A stretch of DNA of 64,000 bases from a virus. Taxonomy: Duplodnaviria > Caudoviricetes. Position numbers and translations under genes: made by a program. How positions within the stretch are numbered: position 1 is the stretch's first letter; the number at the start of each line of letters is the position of its first letter. The stretch spans positions 1 through 64,000 of IMG/VR virus record IMGVR_UViG_3300033076_000210, one strand, 5' to 3'. Under the pieces are notes generated by a model. It was given only the letters and a program-made list of their open reading frames with translations. It was not told where the DNA came from and ran no database searches. Below are positions 14,519 to 61,189 of the stretch, piece after piece.

Positions 14519-14524
14519 TATTTA
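14519..14524 (-). promoter_or_regulatory. late promoter core TAAATA
   Basis: T4 late-promoter-like core upstream of a structural gene. Confidence 0.55.
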
Positions 14525-15232
14525 GCGTGTTAGATAATAGAGCTCAACTCGTTTGTTCCACTCGTTTACCCAGTACTCAAACTCATCGCCTTCGATCACA
14601 AACTCTAGATATTCTGGTGTAGTGTAGGTCCCATCTTCTAGTAATTTAGGCTGCACAGCCATCATAATCACGCCAGTGTCAATGTTAGTGCCGTGTGTTT
14701 CGTTGTGTGCCAATGCATAAGCAGCAAGTTGGGTAAAATAATCACTGATGTGTTCTTTTTTCTTGACCCGATTACTTTGTTTAAAGTCAATAATAGCAGG
14801 TTTTCCTTTCCATTGCCCAATGCAGTCAGTAGTGCCTGCATATAACCCACTATAATACACAGGAACTTCTACGCCCCAAAATTCATCAACATTAACCAGT
14901 CCTTTAAGAATAACTTCAGCGGCCATAAACCAGCTGGGGTGAGCAAACGGGTTACCGGGCAACCCTTTCATATCTGACTGTAATGCATAGTGTTCTAGGT
15001 AAGCATGCATGCGAGTTCCGCGGTTGGCTGCTTCTGTAGTAATCTGCTGCGCTTGTTGTTCGCCCACACGCTTTTTCCAGTTAGCCAGGGCCTCTCGTGA
15101 TTCTTGAGATTTTGTTTTGTCAAGTATAGTAGTAACACTAGGGACCTTGCTTCCGTCAGGCAAGCAATAGTGTCGTTTGCCGTCGATAGTTTCGCGGCTG
15201 ATAGGAGCATAGTTGTAGCGTTGAGTAATCAT
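14522..15232 (-). CDS. PD-(D/E)XK exonuclease
   Basis: PSVTTIL, RGT.MH, YAGTTD, IIDFKQS, QLAAYA. Confidence 0.88.
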   Translation of the reverse strand: MITQRYNYAPISRETIDGKRHYCLPDGSKVPSVTTILDKTKSQESREALANWKKRVGEQQAQQITTEAANRGTRMHAYLEHYALQSDMKGLPGNPFAHPSWFMAAEVILKGLVNVDEFWGVEVPVYYSGLYAGTTDCIGQWKGKPAIIDFKQSNRVKKKEHISDYFTQLAAYALAHNETHGTNIDTGVIMMAVQPKLLEDGTYTTPEYLEFVIEGDEFEYWVNEWNKRVELYYLTR

Positions 15233-15819
15233 TGGTCTAAGTTTCGTTCATTAATATAAGTCATTGGGTTTAGGTTTCGCAACATTTGATTTTGTAGATC
15301 AATAATTTGCTGGGCCAGCTCGCGTTGTTCACGCATAAAATCTGTACCGTAGTCTATAGGAGTCGGTGCCGGTAGTTCTACTTTGCTAGTGATTTCGCTA
15401 CCGTCTCGTTCTACTGTACGTAGTCCATGTTTGGCCGCAAGATGTTGAATCTTTTGATTTTGCGTGATACAGTGCATAAACACATTGTGGATTCCATGTA
15501 TTTGTGCCCAAGGAATCATGTAACTCATTAATCGGTCGCCTATTCCTTGACCTTGTTGGTCACTATCTACACTTACTGCAAGTTCCCAATCGTTGCCTTC
15601 TCGCGCCAAGTGGCCAAACCCCACAATAATATTGTCTTTGCTAGCAGTAAACAAATGATGATCCTTTTGATTATACAAGATGCGCAGGATTAACTGATCA
15701 ATCTGTTCGTCTCGAACGTTGTAGCAGAATCGTGTGTATCGATCGCTAGGCGATAACTTCTTTAAGTGTTGGGCATAAACATCTAGCACCTTTGCAGATT
15801 TTTGTTCAATTTTAATCAT
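15229..15819 (-). CDS. GNAT family acetyltransferase
   Basis: LS..DRY.RF, ELAVSV...QGQGIG acetyl-CoA motif, N..I..LA.K.G. Confidence 0.85.
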   Translation of the reverse strand: MIKIEQKSAKVLDVYAQHLKKLSPSDRYTRFCYNVRDEQIDQLILRILYNQKDHHLFTASKDNIIVGFGHLAREGNDWELAVSVDSDQQGQGIGDRLMSYMIPWAQIHGIHNVFMHCITQNQKIQHLAAKHGLRTVERDGSEITSKVELPAPTPIDYGTDFMREQRELAQQIIDLQNQMLRNLNPMTYINERNLDQ

Positions 15820-15821
15820 AA

Positions 15822-16115
15822 TCAATAACTACCATAGCAGGTCCGTGTGGTTGTTACAGTACCATCGGGATTTTGAATTTGAGTCCATGGACTACAATTC
15901 TGTTGCTGTTGAATCAAGACCGGAGGTTGTTGGGTTACAATCACAGGAGGTACCGGACGAGCTAACTCGTAGCCAATTGCTCCGCCAATAATTACAGGAG
16001 CTACCCATCCCCAACTGTTGTTTTGTCGTTGCCAGTGGCCGTGGTGGTGATAGTGCCCATGGGCCCACGTGGCCGAGCTAAAAGTTAAAAGCAGAAAAAG
16101 AAAAAAGCGTTGCAT
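15822..16115 (-). CDS. exported His-rich small protein
   Basis: Signal peptide (..TWA/HG), HGHYHHHGHW, IIGGAIG motif, Cys pair; start moved to MQRFFLF. Confidence 0.7.
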   Translation of the reverse strand: MQRFFLFLLLTFSSATWAHGHYHHHGHWQRQNNSWGWVAPVIIGGAIGYELARPVPPVIVTQQPPVLIQQQQNCSPWTQIQNPDGTVTTTRTCYGSY

Positions 16116-16169: not shown

Positions 16170-16517
16170 TTATTTCATTCCCCGGCGCATTGCTGCCTTG
16201 GCATTTTGGTTAACAATATCTTCTGCACGATCTACACTCATAGCAGTGGATTCTGGCTCGTCATTACCTTTAAAGCGAATGATGTCTGAATTTGGTTCCA
16301 TTGGTTCTAAAATATTGCTCAACGGTTCTTTTAAAACCAATTCGTCCAATATTTGATCATTGAGGTTGATTCCTAAATTCTTAGCTGAATTAATCAATGC
16401 TTGTTTACTGATTTGTTTTTTGGCGTTGGAATCTTCGGCTCGTCCTGCCAGGAAGTCTATTAGGGCAGATAATTTAACAGTGTTAACACCGCCCTCTGAG
16501 AACTCACGTATTAGCAT
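16170..16517 (-). CDS. hypothetical protein, probable head-internal protein
   Basis: N-terminal MLIREF motif. Confidence 0.65.
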   Translation of the reverse strand: MLIREFSEGGVNTVKLSALIDFLAGRAEDSNAKKQISKQALINSAKNLGINLNDQILDELVLKEPLSNILEPMEPNSDIIRFKGNDEPESTAMSVDRAEDIVNQNAKAAMRRGMK

Positions 16518-17233
16518 TATCTGCGTCCACGACCTAGATCAGCAGTGGCACCTGGAATGTTATCAGTTTCTAAATCTGCGTCTGCTGCAAGATCGTCGCC
16601 AACAGCAGCGTCCAAGTCAGCATCAGCAGCACCGAGGTCAGCAGCAGCATCTAACTCACCACCGGCACCAAGATCAACATCCATGCCTGCATCAACTGGA
16701 GCACCCATTTCTTGGCCGGTAACTACGCCAAGTGCAGCATCCATTTGTTGCTTGCCAGCTTGTAGATTTTGCATCAAGCCTGTTAGAGCAGCAGTAGCAT
16801 CATTGTTAAACTGGCTGGCCTGTTGCTGACCAACTTCGTTCTTGATACTGTCAACTAGTGCAGGAAGATCTTTGAATTGCATTGCTGAAACTTCTTCCAA
16901 CATCTTTTGCATTTTGTCTACCATGTCTTGTGCAGCAAGAACAACTTGAGCTTGTTGAACTTCGCTGGCTTCACGCAATACGTTAAGTTCGCGGAGTCTT
17001 GCAGCAAGTCCTTGCTCCATAACAACCAACTTCAAATATGTTGGGTTTTGTTCACTGCGGTGGAAAGATGGGTGACCGCGGTGTTCGCGGATTAAGTCTC
17101 GCACACGCTTTAACATAGTACGGGCGGTATTAGGCGACATACGGTCAAACTCTGCAGCTTGACCGAAATAACTTTCAAACACTTTAGCTGTTTGCTTTGA
17201 CTTTTGTGGCTGTGCCAGGTCGTGAAGTTTCAT
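16517..17233 (-). CDS. hypothetical protein, probable head-internal/scaffold-like protein
   Basis: Helical with acidic Ala/Asp-rich tail; LRE/A site; TAAATA at 17257-17262. Confidence 0.65.
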   Translation of the reverse strand: MKLHDLAQPQKSKQTAKVFESYFGQAAEFDRMSPNTARTMLKRVRDLIREHRGHPSFHRSEQNPTYLKLVVMEQGLAARLRELNVLREASEVQQAQVVLAAQDMVDKMQKMLEEVSAMQFKDLPALVDSIKNEVGQQQASQFNNDATAALTGLMQNLQAGKQQMDAALGVVTGQEMGAPVDAGMDVDLGAGGELDAAADLGAADADLDAAVGDDLAADADLETDNIPGATADLGRGRR

Positions 17234-17681
17234 TTTCAAATCCTTTTTGATGTAGATATTTAGCCCAATTTACACATTTATCAATTTGATTTTTTAGTTC
17301 TCTTTTGTGTATAATTTTAGGTTCTAATTTAATTTCGATGCTTTCTTTTAACACAGCATCACGAGTTTTGTTTGCAACACCGGCTCGTACAAAAATGTCA
17401 TTAGTAACATTAGATAGCATGTTGTCAAACAGTAATATGTCTCGCGCTAAGTTGTATCGACGGTATTTGTCGGCAATACACCAACTAATTGCAGTACGAG
17501 TACTACTAAACGACCCTTGTATATCATCATTGATGAATACCGAGCATTTTGAGTTATCAACAACAACAAGATATCGGTCAAACACCTGATACTCATTGTT
17601 ACCACTTTGCCAAATTATCGACGGCAAAATGTTTTTAAATTCGTCACGAACCAACTGGTCAAGTTCTTGCTGTCGTTTCAT
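17184..17681 (-). CDS. hypothetical phage protein
   Basis: Coupled ORF, 165 aa. Confidence 0.7.
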   Translation of the reverse strand: MKRQQELDQLVRDEFKNILPSIIWQSGNNEYQVFDRYLVVVDNSKCSVFINDDIQGSFSSTRTAISWCIADKYRRYNLARDILLFDNMLSNVTNDIFVRAGVANKTRDAVLKESIEIKLEPKIIHKRELKNQIDKCVNWAKYLHQKGFENETSRPGTATKVKANS

Positions 17682-18825: not shown

Positions 18826-18889
18826 TTTGATTATCTCCTAATAAATGAGTTTTTTTAACTCTACTTTTATTTATCAAACTGGCAAAAAA

Positions 18890-20806
18890 TTACTTCGTTG
18901 CGGTTGCTTTACGAGCTGGATCAGCAAAGCCGCCTGCTGTTCTACTGACTACTTTAGCACGGCCTGCAGGAGTTGCAAATACCCAGCCTTCTTGTCCGGG
19001 CTGTTGTAAATCCAACTGACGCTGTAGATCTATTTTGAGTTCATGTAGTTTGTTCCATATTGCAAATGCCACGCTCATGCCTAGTACATTAGATCGTGGA
19101 CTCTGTAAATATTCCACAATGTTGTTATACTTTCGTGGTGTGGTATTTGATTGTAGCCAGGCGCCAAAATTCTGCGGGGTAGCGCCAGAGTAATCTGTGC
19201 CTTTAAGGCTATGGATAAACTTTTCCATCAACGCAGGCAAGTCTGTAATTTGTGCAGCACGTAATTCAGCAGGATTTAGTAGTCCCTGTAATGCTTGTGC
19301 GTTTTCGCCGCGAGCATAACTGCTCAGTTCGCTCATGGTATTTCTATTGAGTTTTAAGTTTTGCAAGTTCTTTACTGTTGCGCCGGTTAGCATCAATCCT
19401 GGAACTTTTTTCAACTTGGATTCTGGGTCGCCAATGAACTGTTCGGTAGCATGTGGATCTTCCATGTAAGTATGAACAGCAATGCCAACTTGACTTTTGG
19501 CAATTTCCTGACCTAGTGGGCTAGTAAGTGGTATACGATATTGAATGCCGCCATGTGTGTTAGGTTGGAATACTGCATTACCTGCATCTTCAACCCAGGG
19601 ACGCTCAGGAAAATATAATAAATCGCCCTTCATGTATCCACGGAAATTTTTCGGCACAGCAGCTTCAAAGTAAGGCCAAATGTCTTGATATATTTTAGAT
19701 AGTTGACTGCGGTCAGAAGGTTTACCCTTGGCTGCTGACGCAGAATCTCTTTGCTTGAGAATCTGATCCATCATTTGCGGACTAGTAGCAAGGCCATTAT
19801 AACCCACAGCAGTTGCGCCAGCTTTGTCTGTGAGCACAAAGTTACCCTGAGGATCGCGCCCAAAAATCACAGCCGGTGATCCATCCCATTTGATTGTGGC
19901 ATATTGCTGTGTGTCCTGTGCTGTGTGCTTGATAATTTCTAATGCTTCTCGAGCTCCAGCTAGTCCTTTTTGCAGCACTAAATCTTCAATGTAAGGAATC
20001 CGTGGGTTCTTGGCTTCTGTTAGTTGTTCACTTTCAATCAGCGAATACATTCCTTGATTTACTAATCGATCGCGCAATCTTGCAAGAAATCCCACATCAC
20101 TTTCTTTAAGGTCAGGCTCACTGATCCCTTCACGTTTGAGATACTCACGGAAGTCTGCTAGTTTAGCATCCTTTTGTTGATCGTTTGCTAATGCAGAGTA
20201 AATGCTCTCAACATTCTTTAGATTTTCTTTTGTAGCCGACGGCCCCAGCAACACTTGAGCAACATAATCGGGATTCATGCCATTGGGCACAAGTTGATTA
20301 CTAGTTCGACTAAACATACCATTGGCGCCCACTTTGAGTCCTAAACTCTTGGCAATACTACTCATTAAAACGTTGCGGTTTACTCCCTTGTATTGCGAGT
20401 CTGTTCCCCCGGCATAAAAGAAGGTACCCCAATCTAGGTTAGGGAAAAACATAAAATCTGTTTGCACAAATCCGTTTTTAGCATTACCGCCAATGGGTGT
20501 TTTTAAATGTACTTCTCCGCCTTTTCTCACCCAGTCTCGTGGATCCTGTCCTTGGTTCTGAATAAACTGTGTCAACTTGGCTGCTAGCTCTTCTTTAGAC
20601 ACTTCGGAAATATCCACTGCAAGATCTAAATCTCCTGAAGTGGCTTTGCGTCCTGTTGATCCTAACCAACGTTCTTGTGGGAAATTCATTCCAGTTACTT
20701 GTTCAACCCAGCGAATAGTTGCAGGAACATCTGCTTGATTGATACGCTGTGTCAATGGTTGACCAGCAGCGTCTTTGAATACATTTCCACCTTCTAGTAA
20801 TTTCAT
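18890..20806 (-). CDS. two-domain protein: PolX/pol-beta-like nucleotidyltransferase plus ATP-dependent ligase-like domain
   Basis: GS..R...GDLD + VQTD; KWDG, KGDLLY, QEGWVF, RAKVV motifs. Confidence 0.7.
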   Translation of the reverse strand: MKLLEGGNVFKDAAGQPLTQRINQADVPATIRWVEQVTGMNFPQERWLGSTGRKATSGDLDLAVDISEVSKEELAAKLTQFIQNQGQDPRDWVRKGGEVHLKTPIGGNAKNGFVQTDFMFFPNLDWGTFFYAGGTDSQYKGVNRNVLMSSIAKSLGLKVGANGMFSRTSNQLVPNGMNPDYVAQVLLGPSATKENLKNVESIYSALANDQQKDAKLADFREYLKREGISEPDLKESDVGFLARLRDRLVNQGMYSLIESEQLTEAKNPRIPYIEDLVLQKGLAGAREALEIIKHTAQDTQQYATIKWDGSPAVIFGRDPQGNFVLTDKAGATAVGYNGLATSPQMMDQILKQRDSASAAKGKPSDRSQLSKIYQDIWPYFEAAVPKNFRGYMKGDLLYFPERPWVEDAGNAVFQPNTHGGIQYRIPLTSPLGQEIAKSQVGIAVHTYMEDPHATEQFIGDPESKLKKVPGLMLTGATVKNLQNLKLNRNTMSELSSYARGENAQALQGLLNPAELRAAQITDLPALMEKFIHSLKGTDYSGATPQNFGAWLQSNTTPRKYNNIVEYLQSPRSNVLGMSVAFAIWNKLHELKIDLQRQLDLQQPGQEGWVFATPAGRAKVVSRTAGGFADPARKATATK

Positions 20807-21483
20807 GTTTGTGCCCTTGCTGCGTTAGCAATTAATGCATCAAGTTTGGCTATTTCTGCGGCACCCGGCAGTCCTGGTTTTGGAGCGCCGCCAACAGTCG
20901 GTGCGGTTTGTGTAGTAGGTGCTGTTTGAGGAGTTGTCATTGCAGCCTGGGCCTTTGACAAATCAGTGGCCACTTGCACCATTCTAGCAGTTTCATCTGC
21001 TAAAAGATTGCTTAAAATTGCCTGCTGTAATGCATTTCGTCTTCTTGTGTCAGTATCTCCGCGATGTGCCACAAACTGATCAAAATATTCGCGAGTTTGA
21101 GTCTGAATGTTTGCATCCAATGCAGAAAACTTGTTGTTAAACAATGTTTTATTTGCCCAATTTAAAAATGCTGCCTTGTATTGATCATCAGTCAACGGCG
21201 TAGCACTTTTGGTCTGCAATGCAGCTATGGTTTGATTCCAATTGTCTAGATATTTCAATGCCTGTTGTTGTATTCCCTGATCACGAACAATTGCATCTTT
21301 GCGCTGTGCCAGTGGCATGTTAGCGTATCGAGGATCTTTCGAAAACCGAGCAGACAAGTCCTGAATCACTTGTCCACCAATTTGATCCCAGGCAGCAGCT
21401 ACCTGTGGATTGTTAAGTCCAAAAAAACTTTTTAAATCTTCATTTATTTTTTTAGGAGCTAATGTTAGTTCATGTATTAGCAT
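20803..21483 (-). CDS. hypothetical protein, probable head-internal protein
   Basis: MLIHE N-terminus, INE/D site. Confidence 0.65.
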   Translation of the reverse strand: MLIHELTLAPKKINEDLKSFFGLNNPQVAAAWDQIGGQVIQDLSARFSKDPRYANMPLAQRKDAIVRDQGIQQQALKYLDNWNQTIAALQTKSATPLTDDQYKAAFLNWANKTLFNNKFSALDANIQTQTREYFDQFVAHRGDTDTRRRNALQQAILSNLLADETARMVQVATDLSKAQAAMTTPQTAPTTQTAPTVGGAPKPGLPGAAEIAKLDALIANAARAQT

Positions 21484-21718
21484 CTGTGCGTCTCACTGTT
21501 CTTGTAAATTTACTTGGGTCACGCAATTTAATAGCATTCAGCAGTTTACGTTGCAGATTATCTGCTTGCTCTGGGGTATAACTAGAATCAATTTCTTCCA
21601 TGAGTCTGATTGCACTAGAAATAATATTGTTTGCACGGTTCTCAATGACGTGGCGGCGATCTTTCTCTACATACATTGAGTTTAGTTCTTCTAGCAAACT
21701 ACGAGTGTTCTTTTGCAT
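21470..21718 (-). CDS. hypothetical phage protein
   Basis: TAAATA at 21737-21742; helical 82 aa. Confidence 0.7.
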   Translation of the reverse strand: MQKNTRSLLEELNSMYVEKDRRHVIENRANNIISSAIRLMEEIDSSYTPEQADNLQRKLLNAIKLRDPSKFTRTVRRTDANT

Positions 21719-21762
21719 AATCTTGGGCCCTTGTGTTATTTATTAAAAGACTTGAACTTGAA

Positions 21763-22905
21763 TTAAAGGTATCGCTTGTACCATGTTAGAAACTCTGGAT
21801 ACGTGTCTCTCCAATTTTGGTTTCTAATTTGATCATGGGTGTTTAGATGATCGAGCATTTTTCTAATAGCAGATTCTTGATCTGTTGGTGCGTTTAGAAT
21901 ACGATTATGCACCCAATGCCCAGGCGGAACACTTAATAATGCATGTTCCTTGTATTCAGAGCTCATTGCAGCAAATGAGTACTCTCCCATACAGTCGTGA
22001 TAATTTATAGTTATTTTGTCACCATATATTGTCTCAGAGAAATTATCTTGTTGCCATTGGTCAAATTGTGTTATCCAAGCGGCTGTTAATACTCCCACTG
22101 TGCGCTCAACTCTAAGCAATCCGTTGTGAGGCAAATTAGTTCGAAACCATTCAAGATTATCAGTCATTTCTTTCCAATTTGCAGGCCATCTTTGATATTC
22201 CATCCTTGGCCCCAAATCATCCAAGCTGAAATAAATTTCCAACATCTTAAACTTTTCCCAAAATTTTAGAACAGTGTCCGACACTCGTGTAGTTGCATTT
22301 GAATGATACCATAACGATATCTGACTCAGATCTACTGTGTCTTGCAATTTTTCTAATACACGTAAATGTGTAAGGGACAAAAGCGGCTCCCCGCCCTGGA
22401 AATGAATTTGTTTAATATCATGTGTGGGCACTGTAGATAGCAAGTCAACTATGTTGCTATCAGTGGCCCGCACTTTAAATTTTTTACTGGATTCAAATTT
22501 ATCTTTAGTTTCTACGTGTCTCCAAAAGGTGCTTAATTCTGGACCGCATATTCTACACGCCAGATTGCAACTAAAATCAACTTGTAAATCTAATTCAATC
22601 ACTGATTGAGGGTTTTGCCAGTGCGTTCCTAGTCTGTCGTTCCAACTTTGGCGACGACTATAATTTCCGTTATTTTCAACTCGACGACATGCCGAACAGT
22701 TATCAGGGAGTTCGTGCCCTTTTAAATTTTCTATTCTTTCTTTTTGCAAATTATCGTTTAGCCAAAATTCATCCTGAATGTTTGAAGTAACTTCGTATTC
22801 AGTTCCGTACAAACAGCAAGGTTTGGCCATCCATTTTCTCTTAGCGGTTTGATATTTTAACCACATACCTCCTTGCAAGTCAGCACAGTATTTAGAATTA
22901 TCCAT
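21763..22905 (-). CDS. radical SAM protein with N-terminal Twitch/SPASM-like cysteines
   Basis: CNLACRIC (CxxxCxxC), GGEPLL, N-terminal PCC...CxxC. Confidence 0.88.
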   Translation of the reverse strand: MDNSKYCADLQGGMWLKYQTAKRKWMAKPCCLYGTEYEVTSNIQDEFWLNDNLQKERIENLKGHELPDNCSACRRVENNGNYSRRQSWNDRLGTHWQNPQSVIELDLQVDFSCNLACRICGPELSTFWRHVETKDKFESSKKFKVRATDSNIVDLLSTVPTHDIKQIHFQGGEPLLSLTHLRVLEKLQDTVDLSQISLWYHSNATTRVSDTVLKFWEKFKMLEIYFSLDDLGPRMEYQRWPANWKEMTDNLEWFRTNLPHNGLLRVERTVGVLTAAWITQFDQWQQDNFSETIYGDKITINYHDCMGEYSFAAMSSEYKEHALLSVPPGHWVHNRILNAPTDQESAIRKMLDHLNTHDQIRNQNWRDTYPEFLTWYKRYL

Positions 22906-60580: not shown

Positions 60581-61189
60581 TTATCCTCGTGGGTTACGGC
60601 CAGTTGCTGGCTTAGGTGGACGCTTGACTGTGCTCATTGGGCTGTTTTTGCCTTGTGGTAAGTCATTTGTAGTTTCTGCGGGTTTGGTTTTTTCGCCAGC
60701 AATAGTGAAATCTGAACGGTAAGCATTTTTAAGGACTGCATGATCGTATGGGCCAGTTGCATAATCTTTGCTCAACGCTTTTTGTTTTGCATCAGGTGCA
60801 GGGAAATCAGTATCGTCGATTAATTCTTTGTTTTGATCTTCGATATCAATGCGTTCTTCTTGATTATTGTCAGAATAATTAGGAGTTTGCATCAACACAC
60901 GGTTTGGGTCCATGCCCAATAACTGTGCAATTTGACGAATTTGTGCATCGATCGCAGGATAACGGAATTCTACATCCACTGTGCTTACACGTTCATTACT
61001 GAATGCAGGAAAGTCCGGTGTTCTTGCTTGGATAGGTGTGGTTTTTACATCACCTACTTTAACTGGATCAAATTGATCCAACTTTGCTTTAAAGTCTTTG
61101 TAAAAATTGCCTGGTAAGTCACCGGCGAATTTGATGCGATAAGAGTATGTTCTTTCGCTTTCGATTAGATAATCTCTGAAGTGTTTCAT
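60581..61189 (-). CDS. hypothetical virion protein
   Basis: MKHFRDYLIES N-terminus; TAAATA at 61207-61212. Confidence 0.65.
   Translation of the reverse strand: MKHFRDYLIESERTYSYRIKFAGDLPGNFYKDFKAKLDQFDPVKVGDVKTTPIQARTPDFPAFSNERVSTVDVEFRYPAIDAQIRQIAQLLGMDPNRVLMQTPNYSDNNQEERIDIEDQNKELIDDTDFPAPDAKQKALSKDYATGPYDHAVLKNAYRSDFTIAGEKTKPAETTNDLPQGKNSPMSTVKRPPKPATGRNPRG

Follow-up and report, generated by a model that had tools for sequence, protein, structure and literature searches.

Eukaryotic cells and giant viruses of eukaryotes, among them African swine fever virus (ASFV) and Phaeocystis globosa virus, are known to possess DNA polymerases of family X (PolX) that fill and seal breaks together with a ligase. 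In strain 16T of the Phaeocystis virus both enzymes reside in one fusion protein, PgVPolX, whose polymerase, lyase and ligase activities were shown to cooperate (PMC5537341). In bacteria and jumbo phages RlaP (PF10127) is paired with RNA ligases, and such pairs were proposed to restore lost nucleotides before sealing (PMC7824862, PMC12776372). Our literature searches returned no description of a PolX-ligase fill-and-seal pair in a bacteriophage. Here we analyze a 64,000-nucleotide stretch of viral DNA (positions 1 to 64,000 of IMG/VR record IMGVR_UViG_3300033076_000210), hereinafter the window, with attention to one gene at positions 18890..20806. A preliminary description of this gene, which did not state its strand, had taken its product for a PolX-like polymerase fused to a ligase-like domain, delivered by the virion and separated by a prohead protease. 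According to the data obtained, the two halves are predicted to adopt a minimal PolX-type fold and an ATP-type ligase fold, and the conserved sites at their borders suggest that the chain may be cut in the phage head.

The open reading frame (ORF) is a genuine gene with thousands of metagenomic homologues. It lies on the minus strand in one frame, encodes 638 residues plus stop, and its start overlaps the stop of an upstream 226-residue gene (ATGA). A word-indexed search returned 3,739 relatives of the protein, the best 120 of which reach down to 60% identity, while exhaustive comparison with 1.84 billion cluster representatives gave 1,146 matches, 215 of them below 1e-30. PHROGs places the protein in a family of unknown function, and a nucleotide search with the window retrieved no matching phage record. 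The window is part of a 93.9-kb viral contig with an estimated completeness of 28%. Its source is a jumbo myovirus, since related contigs reach 364 kb and have terminal repeats; the phage genes seen comprise those for ribonucleotide reductase, DnaB, primase, UvsX, a gp32-like single-stranded DNA-binding protein, terminase and tail proteins. Among the related records G001 is complete (364 kb) and bears direct terminal repeats; the fusion protein that it encodes is 57% identical to that of the window, and it also has genes for a T4-type prohead protease and for an ATP DNA ligase of canonical type. In each genome examined the fusion is present once. All residues quoted in the preliminary description were found in place: G49-S50...G58-D59-L60-D61 and D117 in the first half, K306-W-D-G, KGDLLY (393-398), E606-G-W-V-F and R616-A-K-V-V in the second, and LLE/G6, LKE/S236, LIE/S259 and LTE/A265 at the borders (slashes mark the presumed cuts). 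The AlphaFold model of the whole protein, which was built from a 44-sequence alignment and has a mean predicted local distance difference test score (pLDDT) of 91, consists of two domains with a low-confidence linker between them at residues 250-266. Conservation was scored over representatives at most 50% identical.

Residues 6-230 (20117..20791, minus strand, as are all coordinates below) are modelled as a minimal family-X-type polymerase fold made of palm, thumb and C-terminal helices. The stretch G49-S50...G58-D59-L60-D61 (20624..20662) would bind the nucleotide through its loop and supply the first two of the three catalytic carboxylates, the third being D117 (20456-20458). Ten residues of this half are near-invariant, namely G49, G52, S57, G58, D59, D61, H100, Q115, D117 and R144, and the GS...DxD...D residues occupy fitting secondary-structure positions in the model. 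The top 50 Foldseek matches of the domain are all family X polymerases. The same result was obtained, independently of Foldseek, by an unbiased structure comparison with 48,161 PDB representatives, where ranks 1-9 all belong to this family: Pol beta scored Z 10.4 (root-mean-square deviation, rmsd, 3.2 over 165 residues), Thermus PolX 9.8, Pol lambda 9.6, TdT 9.4 and ASFV Pol X 9.2 (rmsd 3.4, 158 of 176 residues aligned). In a separate alignment with Pol beta (Z 10.5, rmsd 3.2 Å, 164 residues) positions 11-200 of the model corresponded to residues 139-335, that is to palm and thumb. The thumb follows directly after the palm, the alignment running to Pol beta residue 335 and across the whole of ASFV Pol X, whereas TUTases, CutA, Trf4, CD-NTases, OAS and MenT reached Z values of at most 6.7 and aligned by the palm only, over 83-92 residues. 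Since the top structural matches are all of family X and the other nucleotidyltransferases share only the palm, residues 1-200 are assigned, on the strength of the model, to a minimal PolX-type fold, reduced in the manner of ASFV Pol X. The 8-kDa dRP-lyase domain and the helix-hairpin-helix fingers domain are absent from the model, in which only about 20 residues precede the palm; ASFV Pol X likewise has neither of them. Thus, the PolX-like catalytic set and fold proposed for this half are supported by both structural searches and by the near-invariant residues. The thumb motif read earlier from residues 139-165 held at the level of the fold only, in that these residues fall within the part aligned to the Pol beta thumb.

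Sequence comparison of the first half was far less informative. A Pfam scan of the 638-residue protein gave no match on it, and 24 N-domain homologues compared with Pfam shared no family, one of them giving DNA_pol_B_thumb at E 0.15. No match to RlaP (PF10127) appeared at E up to 10, either for the protein or for the 24 homologues, and no Pfam match linked the N-domain to CCA-adding enzymes. PDB sequence searches with the whole protein and with the profiles of the N- and C-terminal halves retrieved chance matches only.

The second half (residues 265-638, 18893..20014) is recognized by Pfam as DUF6267 (PF19782), which covers residues ~270-622 with 84.8 bits against a cut-off of 27 (E 1e-23); full-text literature searches found no paper mentioning DUF6267 or PF19782. 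Its conserved residues are those expected for a covalent nucleotidyltransferase of the ligase type. K306, D308, G309, R317, D327, K328, D395, F413, P415, N416, Y423, H445, K591, E606, G607, K618 and R622 are near-invariant. K306-W-D-G (19880..19891) is motif I with the predicted AMP-accepting lysine, and its K, D and G are kept in 33-34 of 34 sequences. Motifs III (G394-D395-L-L), IIIa (F413-x-P-N), IV (E606-G607-W-V) and V (K618-V-V-S-R622, with the pattern K618-x-V-x-R622) follow in this order, all near-invariant and the last two within 18941..18991; their numbers were assigned by order and pattern and not by residue-level superposition. Modelled alone, the domain has a pLDDT of 89.6. Its Foldseek matches have E values of 0.01 or worse, yet the list consists almost wholly of DNA and RNA ligases. 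For the domain alone the top 15 of the 48,161 representatives are all ATP-dependent ligases with Z of 5.3-6.7 (REL1 6.7, several DNA ligases ~6, T4 Rnl2 5.8), and in the run with the whole model the ligases scored 7.7 (NgrRnl), 7.1 (Trl1), 7.0 (REL1), 6.8 (Rnl2) and 6.4 (LigIII). A helical insert of about 110 residues (~488-601) stands ahead of motif IV. An OB-fold domain with motif VI is absent, only ~16 residues remaining after motif V. Although the Z values alone are inconclusive, the hit list is uniform and the motif set conserved, and we therefore consider the assignment of the modelled domain to the ATP-type ligase fold sound, in agreement with the motifs I, III, IV and V and the fold proposed at the outset. 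Because the catalytic residues are near-invariant, both active sites look intact as judged from the alignments.

The two halves are not obligatorily joined. They occur as separate proteins (~240 and ~370 residues), fused in either order or encoded by neighbouring genes, and both domains were also found inside proteins of up to 1,300 residues. Without the polymerase half DUF6267 is widespread in marine T4-like cyanophages and is present in pelagiphage HTVC008M. Among approximately 40 homologues longer than 700 residues (P0147-P0261) at least 16 carry, after DUF6267, a module with the motif GxFxPxHxGH, similar to archaeal NMNAT and cytidylyltransferases, so that this addition forms a recurrent three-enzyme architecture; one long homologue has NT5C (HAD phosphatase) and DUF5661 and another one DUF2608. 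In Phosso, Atu_ph07 and PA5oct a different gene with a KxDG motif lies at or near the PolX-like gene. These genes (L002:3806-5041 in Phosso, L093:4013-4987 in Atu_ph07 and L001:3300-4640, gp228, in PA5oct) are annotated "hypothetical" and bear the motif near the N-terminus, as EKLDGS or TEKIDGY. A profile comparison aligned the stretch EGYV...VKIVDK of PA5oct gp228 with motifs IV-V of DUF6267 at a probability of 86%; Phosso gene 446 gave no alignment with the DUF6267 profile. By these motifs the KxDG genes look like a second, unannotated ligase-like family of jumbo phages.

The inter-domain linker of the window's protein (residues 231-264, 20015..20116) contains the sites LKE/S, LIE/S and LTE/A. 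Within it there is an amphipathic helix, FLARLRDRLVNQGM (residues 240-253, 20039-20080), which is conserved in the fused forms and also found at the C-terminus of some stand-alone N-domains and at the N-terminus of some stand-alone C-domains; in other stand-alone N-domains the C-terminus is formed by a comparable amphipathic helix of the type W-F/Y...L. The linker helix may be an interaction or targeting element.

The preliminary description had pointed to [LI]xE sites at the N-terminus and in the linker, and such sites turned out to be kept at both domain borders throughout the family. Three or more residues precede the domain in 83 N-domains, and in 82 of these (L/I)xE directly adjoins the conserved GGN(V/I)FK, with 1.2 expected; P1 is E, P3 is occupied by nothing but L (67) or I (15), and P2 varies freely. 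The N-domains embedded in longer proteins have (L/I)xE at the border in all 20 of 20 cases. For C-domains, [LIVM]xE ends 3-7 residues before the first conserved helix in 75 of 88 sequences (6.4 expected) and is followed at P1' by A, G or S; LTE/A265 of the window's protein falls in this conserved column, in a stretch of low model confidence. The homologues of Phosso, Atu_ph07 and PA5oct start straight at M-G-G or M-S-G, with no in-frame upstream start in Phosso, which argues that the fold does not include hxE. Stand-alone homologues have leaders of the form M-K/R-h-x-E-h...h-x-E, similar to the 10-residue capsid-targeting sequence of T4; targeting and processing positions of such leaders have been summarised (PMC9026906). 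In the window's protein residues 1-5 (MKLLE, 20792..20806) make a minimal leader ending in (L/I)xE before G6. Four of five related records, the complete 364-kb one and a record whose fusion homologue is 89% identical among them, encode a T4-type prohead protease (Peptidase_S77); it was not found on the window's own 93.9-kb fragment, estimated at 28% of a genome. Across the genome, N-terminal [LI]xE is not enriched (~21 of 121 ORFs of the window's own record by manual count within the first 20 residues, against a chance level of ~15% estimated by hand). Leader-like starts were nevertheless seen on neighbouring late proteins, and they resemble those of stand-alone PolX-like and DUF6267 proteins: MLIREFSE/GG in a protein of 115 residues (16170-16517), MKHFRDYLIE/S in one of 202 residues assigned to a virion-structural PHROG (60581-61189) and MKMKLHDLA...VFE/S in one of 240 residues (16517-17239), a homologue of PA5oct gp237.

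The order of genes around the fusion is primase, DnaB, radical SAM protein, an 82-residue protein, a 226-residue protein and the fusion itself, and it is conserved in relatives. The 82-residue gene (21470..21718), which opens the operon, belongs to the virion-structural PHROG phrog_11854 (E 1.3e-17), and its homologues hold the same position in Phosso, Atu_ph07 and all close relatives; PA5oct gp230 has no similarity to this protein. The second gene (20803..21483) encodes the 226-residue protein with a leader-like N-terminus MLIHEL...INE/D. Ahead of the operon, within the 44-nt spacer after the radical-SAM gene and 18 nt before the ATG of the 82-residue gene, there is an ATAAATA element (21737..21743) that matches T4 TATAAATA in 7 of 8 positions. 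In 59 of 59 related loci [A/C]TAAATA stands at the same distance (~20 nt) ahead of the operon's opening gene, while the flanks vary. Downstream of the fusion there are small genes, followed by that of the 240-residue protein mentioned above; a second ATAAATA (18868..18874) heads this next operon, which includes 16517-17239. The whole contig contains 14 copies of ATAAATA on the coding strand and 3 on the other one, most of the coding-strand copies being just upstream of gene starts, tail and structural genes among them. In a separate count the heptamer was overall no commoner than chance (11 found, 13.4 expected), the exact TATAAATA was found once, and several copies share bases with a TAA stop codon closely followed by the next ATG. 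As evidence we used therefore only position and cross-genome conservation of the element and not its counts, and since the total does not exceed chance and some copies overlap stops, we call it late-promoter-like only. The TAAATA late operon proposed earlier thus gained support from the 59 loci, but the heptamer as such is not over-represented.

For a relative of the N-domain the annotation points to the virion. Phage PA5oct has a homologue with 25% identity (pairwise E 9e-11), annotated as "structural protein, ESI-MS/MS" (electrospray ionisation tandem mass spectrometry), and PA5oct gp237 is a virion protein also detected by mass spectrometry. The PA5oct proteome comprises 93 virion-associated products, seven of which are "virion-unrelated enzymes" (PMC7318152), and detection of the homologue is for this reason suggestive and not specific. 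The proteome of phage MIJ3 covers four major proteins only.

Based on these data one can assume the following sequence of events. The protein would be made late, from an operon headed by a virion-protein gene. Inside the head the T4-type prohead protease of the lineage would cut the chain at the (L/I)xE borders into two enzymes, and both of them would enter the cell together with the phage DNA. Residues 6-230 would then extend a 3'-OH end by one nucleotide or a few, while residues 265-638 would load AMP on K306, pass it to a 5'-phosphate and seal the break, so that together the two halves would fill and seal breaks in nucleic acids. Enzymatic activity, its substrate, cleavage, packaging and injection are what we infer here from sequences and models, and the parts of the scheme differ in strength. 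That both modelled halves are active on polynucleotide ends is probable. Cutting in the head and entry with DNA appear to be the most likely fate of the protein, because the operon is of late type and headed by a virion gene and because (L/I)xE precedes each domain; taken by itself, head loading with cutting, as suggested by these sequence features, is a tentative proposal that we rate somewhat below an even chance. The whole account of a two-enzyme fill-and-seal chain, made late, cut in the head and injected, falls just short of even. A more specific version is doubtful: the head-loaded polyprotein would yield a ligase of a new family and a mini-PolX whose N-terminus is a free Gly-Gly, and both, once injected, would mend the incoming DNA (nicks, gaps or breaks due to host nucleases) ahead of all phage gene expression. 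Repair after restriction or CRISPR cleavage as the purpose of the system is speculation. Of the earlier interpretation, both folds, the late-promoter context, the conservation of the border sites and the presence of the protease in relatives found support, and the annotated PA5oct homologue gives one piece of indirect experimental support; that the window's protein is packaged, cut and injected, acts on DNA and not on RNA, and counters restriction or CRISPR are proposals.

Several observations weigh against packaging and repair by the injected pair. No sequence method puts either half in a polymerase or ligase family, and Z values of 5-7.7 for the ligase fold lie within the range where unrelated folds also score. 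The related sequences in which the border sites were counted are not independent, and hxE could have a structural role. The identity of the PA5oct homologue to the window's N-domain is low, and the ligase-like gp228 of the same phage carries no mass-spectrometry mark. The leader of the window's protein is shorter than the capsid-targeting sequence of T4, having only 5 residues instead of 10, and the DUF6267 gene of S-RSM4 lacks the structural label that one of its neighbours bears. Finally, Phosso, Atu_ph07, HTVC008M and S-RSM4 also have a helicase or primase gene next to the homologue, and this adjacency to primase and DnaB (or gp41), common to the window and four other phages, fits cytoplasmic replication or repair equally well.

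The last three points are at the same time arguments for an alternative, in which the fill-and-seal chemistry is the same and the protein, late or linked to replication, acts in the cytoplasm. There it would mend nicks and gaps of replicated, concatemeric phage DNA before packaging or help in lagging-strand synthesis or recombination, hxE being structural or serving some other function. A PD-(D/E)XK exonuclease encoded nearby is also in line with this. Against it, relatives already encode a canonical 461-residue ATP DNA ligase, and the presence of (L/I)xE at both borders, its occurrence in every internal domain and the M-G-G starts of homologues are hard to explain in this way; the operon, moreover, opens with a gene of a virion-structural family behind a late-type promoter. 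Taken together, this makes a purely cytoplasmic role unlikely in our estimate. The idea that DUF6267 is the missing replicative ligase of these phages was rejected for this lineage because the complete and the closest relatives each carry a canonical ATP DNA ligase of 461-462 residues; an NAD-type ligase was not found.

A further alternative concerns the substrate. The N-terminal half could restore lost 3' nucleotides of cleaved tRNAs or other RNAs and the ligase reseal them, thereby countering anticodon nucleases of the host, a role that has been proposed for the pairs of RlaP and RNA ligase in jumbo phages. The ligase half has no OB domain, although all DNA ligases have one, and its best structural matches lean to RNA ligases over LigIII; these two features, which argue against DNA as the substrate of the injected pair, speak for an RNA-repair enzyme. 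In the complete relative G001 a DNA ligase is encoded separately, and searches for Rnl1 and Rnl2 found neither of them there, the negative for Rnl1 carrying little weight because this search found none in any control genome. Fusion of some homologues to HAD-type NT5C phosphatase domains and the precedent of the RlaP pairs point in the same direction. On the other hand, RNA and DNA ligases that differ by less than one Z unit have to be counted as equal, the resemblance of the N-domain to DNA polymerases of family X extends to the thumb and is much weaker for RNA-specific nucleotidyltransferases, Pfam gave no match to RlaP or CCA-adding enzymes, and no polynucleotide kinase module was seen in long homologues. 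The PolX fold with thumb, the linkage to replication genes and the precedents of ASFV and PgVPolX speak for DNA, to which we give a slight preference, and repair of RNA ends seems to us quite improbable. A role outside polynucleotides, in a nucleotide-cofactor or small-molecule pathway such as NAD-related counter-defence with an NMNAT-like HxGH transferase, might be imagined from the GxFxPxHxGH and NT5C modules of long homologues and from a cytidylyltransferase gene near the HTVC008M locus, but it is very hard to reconcile with a fold that is specifically PolX with a thumb, unlike small-molecule nucleotidyltransferases, with the full conserved set of ligase motifs I-V and with the lack of a third module in the window's protein.

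Some features of the neighbourhood deserve mention in their own right. The radical-SAM protein (21763-22905) encoded between DnaB and the late operon has 336-429 residues in some relatives and is absent in others. The exonuclease mentioned above and a GNAT acetyltransferase are encoded at 14522-15825, between virion-protein genes and a pectate-lyase-type tailspike, and a "putative exonuclease" of PA5oct occupies the matching place within its mass-spectrometry-positive gene block. A search for the endonuclease IV family in relatives gave sub-threshold matches only.

Both halves represent large phage-only families that databases leave unnamed, the N-domain having no Pfam family and the C-domain being DUF6267, and once their folds are named, thousands of "hypothetical" phage proteins acquire a function that can be tested. 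Enzymes injected by phages form a short list, which includes RNA polymerases, Alt and anti-restriction proteins. If head loading is true, a pair of repair enzymes would join this list and point to a new way of surviving host nucleases; to our knowledge, a virion-delivered DNA repair system has not been described for any phage.

Of the systems already described, ASFV Pol X (174 residues) is the closest in construction: it is viral, consists of palm and thumb only and is paired with a ligase for fill-and-seal repair. The window's polymerase half differs from it by the absence of detectable sequence similarity, by a bacterial host and by late expression with possible head loading, and its ligase partner, unlike the ASFV DNA ligase, is fused, has no OB domain and comes from the uncharacterised DUF6267. 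PgVPolX of a giant virus likewise carries a Pol-beta-like core and a ligase domain on one chain. Its ligase is of the NAD+-dependent type and its full Pol-beta core with dRP lyase is recognisable, while the protein studied here is predicted to have an ATP-type ligase fold with a helical insert and a polymerase half that lacks the 8-kDa domain. The RlaP pairs share with it the genomic coupling of a Pol-beta-superfamily nucleotidyltransferase to a ligase; they are set apart by the lack of a PF10127 match and the PolX-like thumb in our protein, and by its partner being DUF6267 and not Rnl1, Rnl2 or RtcB. Bacterial LigD also combines a gap-filling polymerase and an ATP-dependent ligase in one protein for break repair, but its polymerase has the archaeo-eukaryotic primase fold and its ligase possesses an OB domain (1vs0, Z 4.4). 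Regarding processing, the (L/I)xE border sites followed by a small residue after the cut liken the protein to the internal proteins of T4 and Alt, whose leaders are cut by gp21, the differences from T4 head proteins being the five-residue leader and the cargo; we know of no polymerase-ligase pair among them. Fill-and-seal repair by PolX and a ligase is of a known kind, and it is the families, the phage host range, the architecture and the possible route of delivery that are new.

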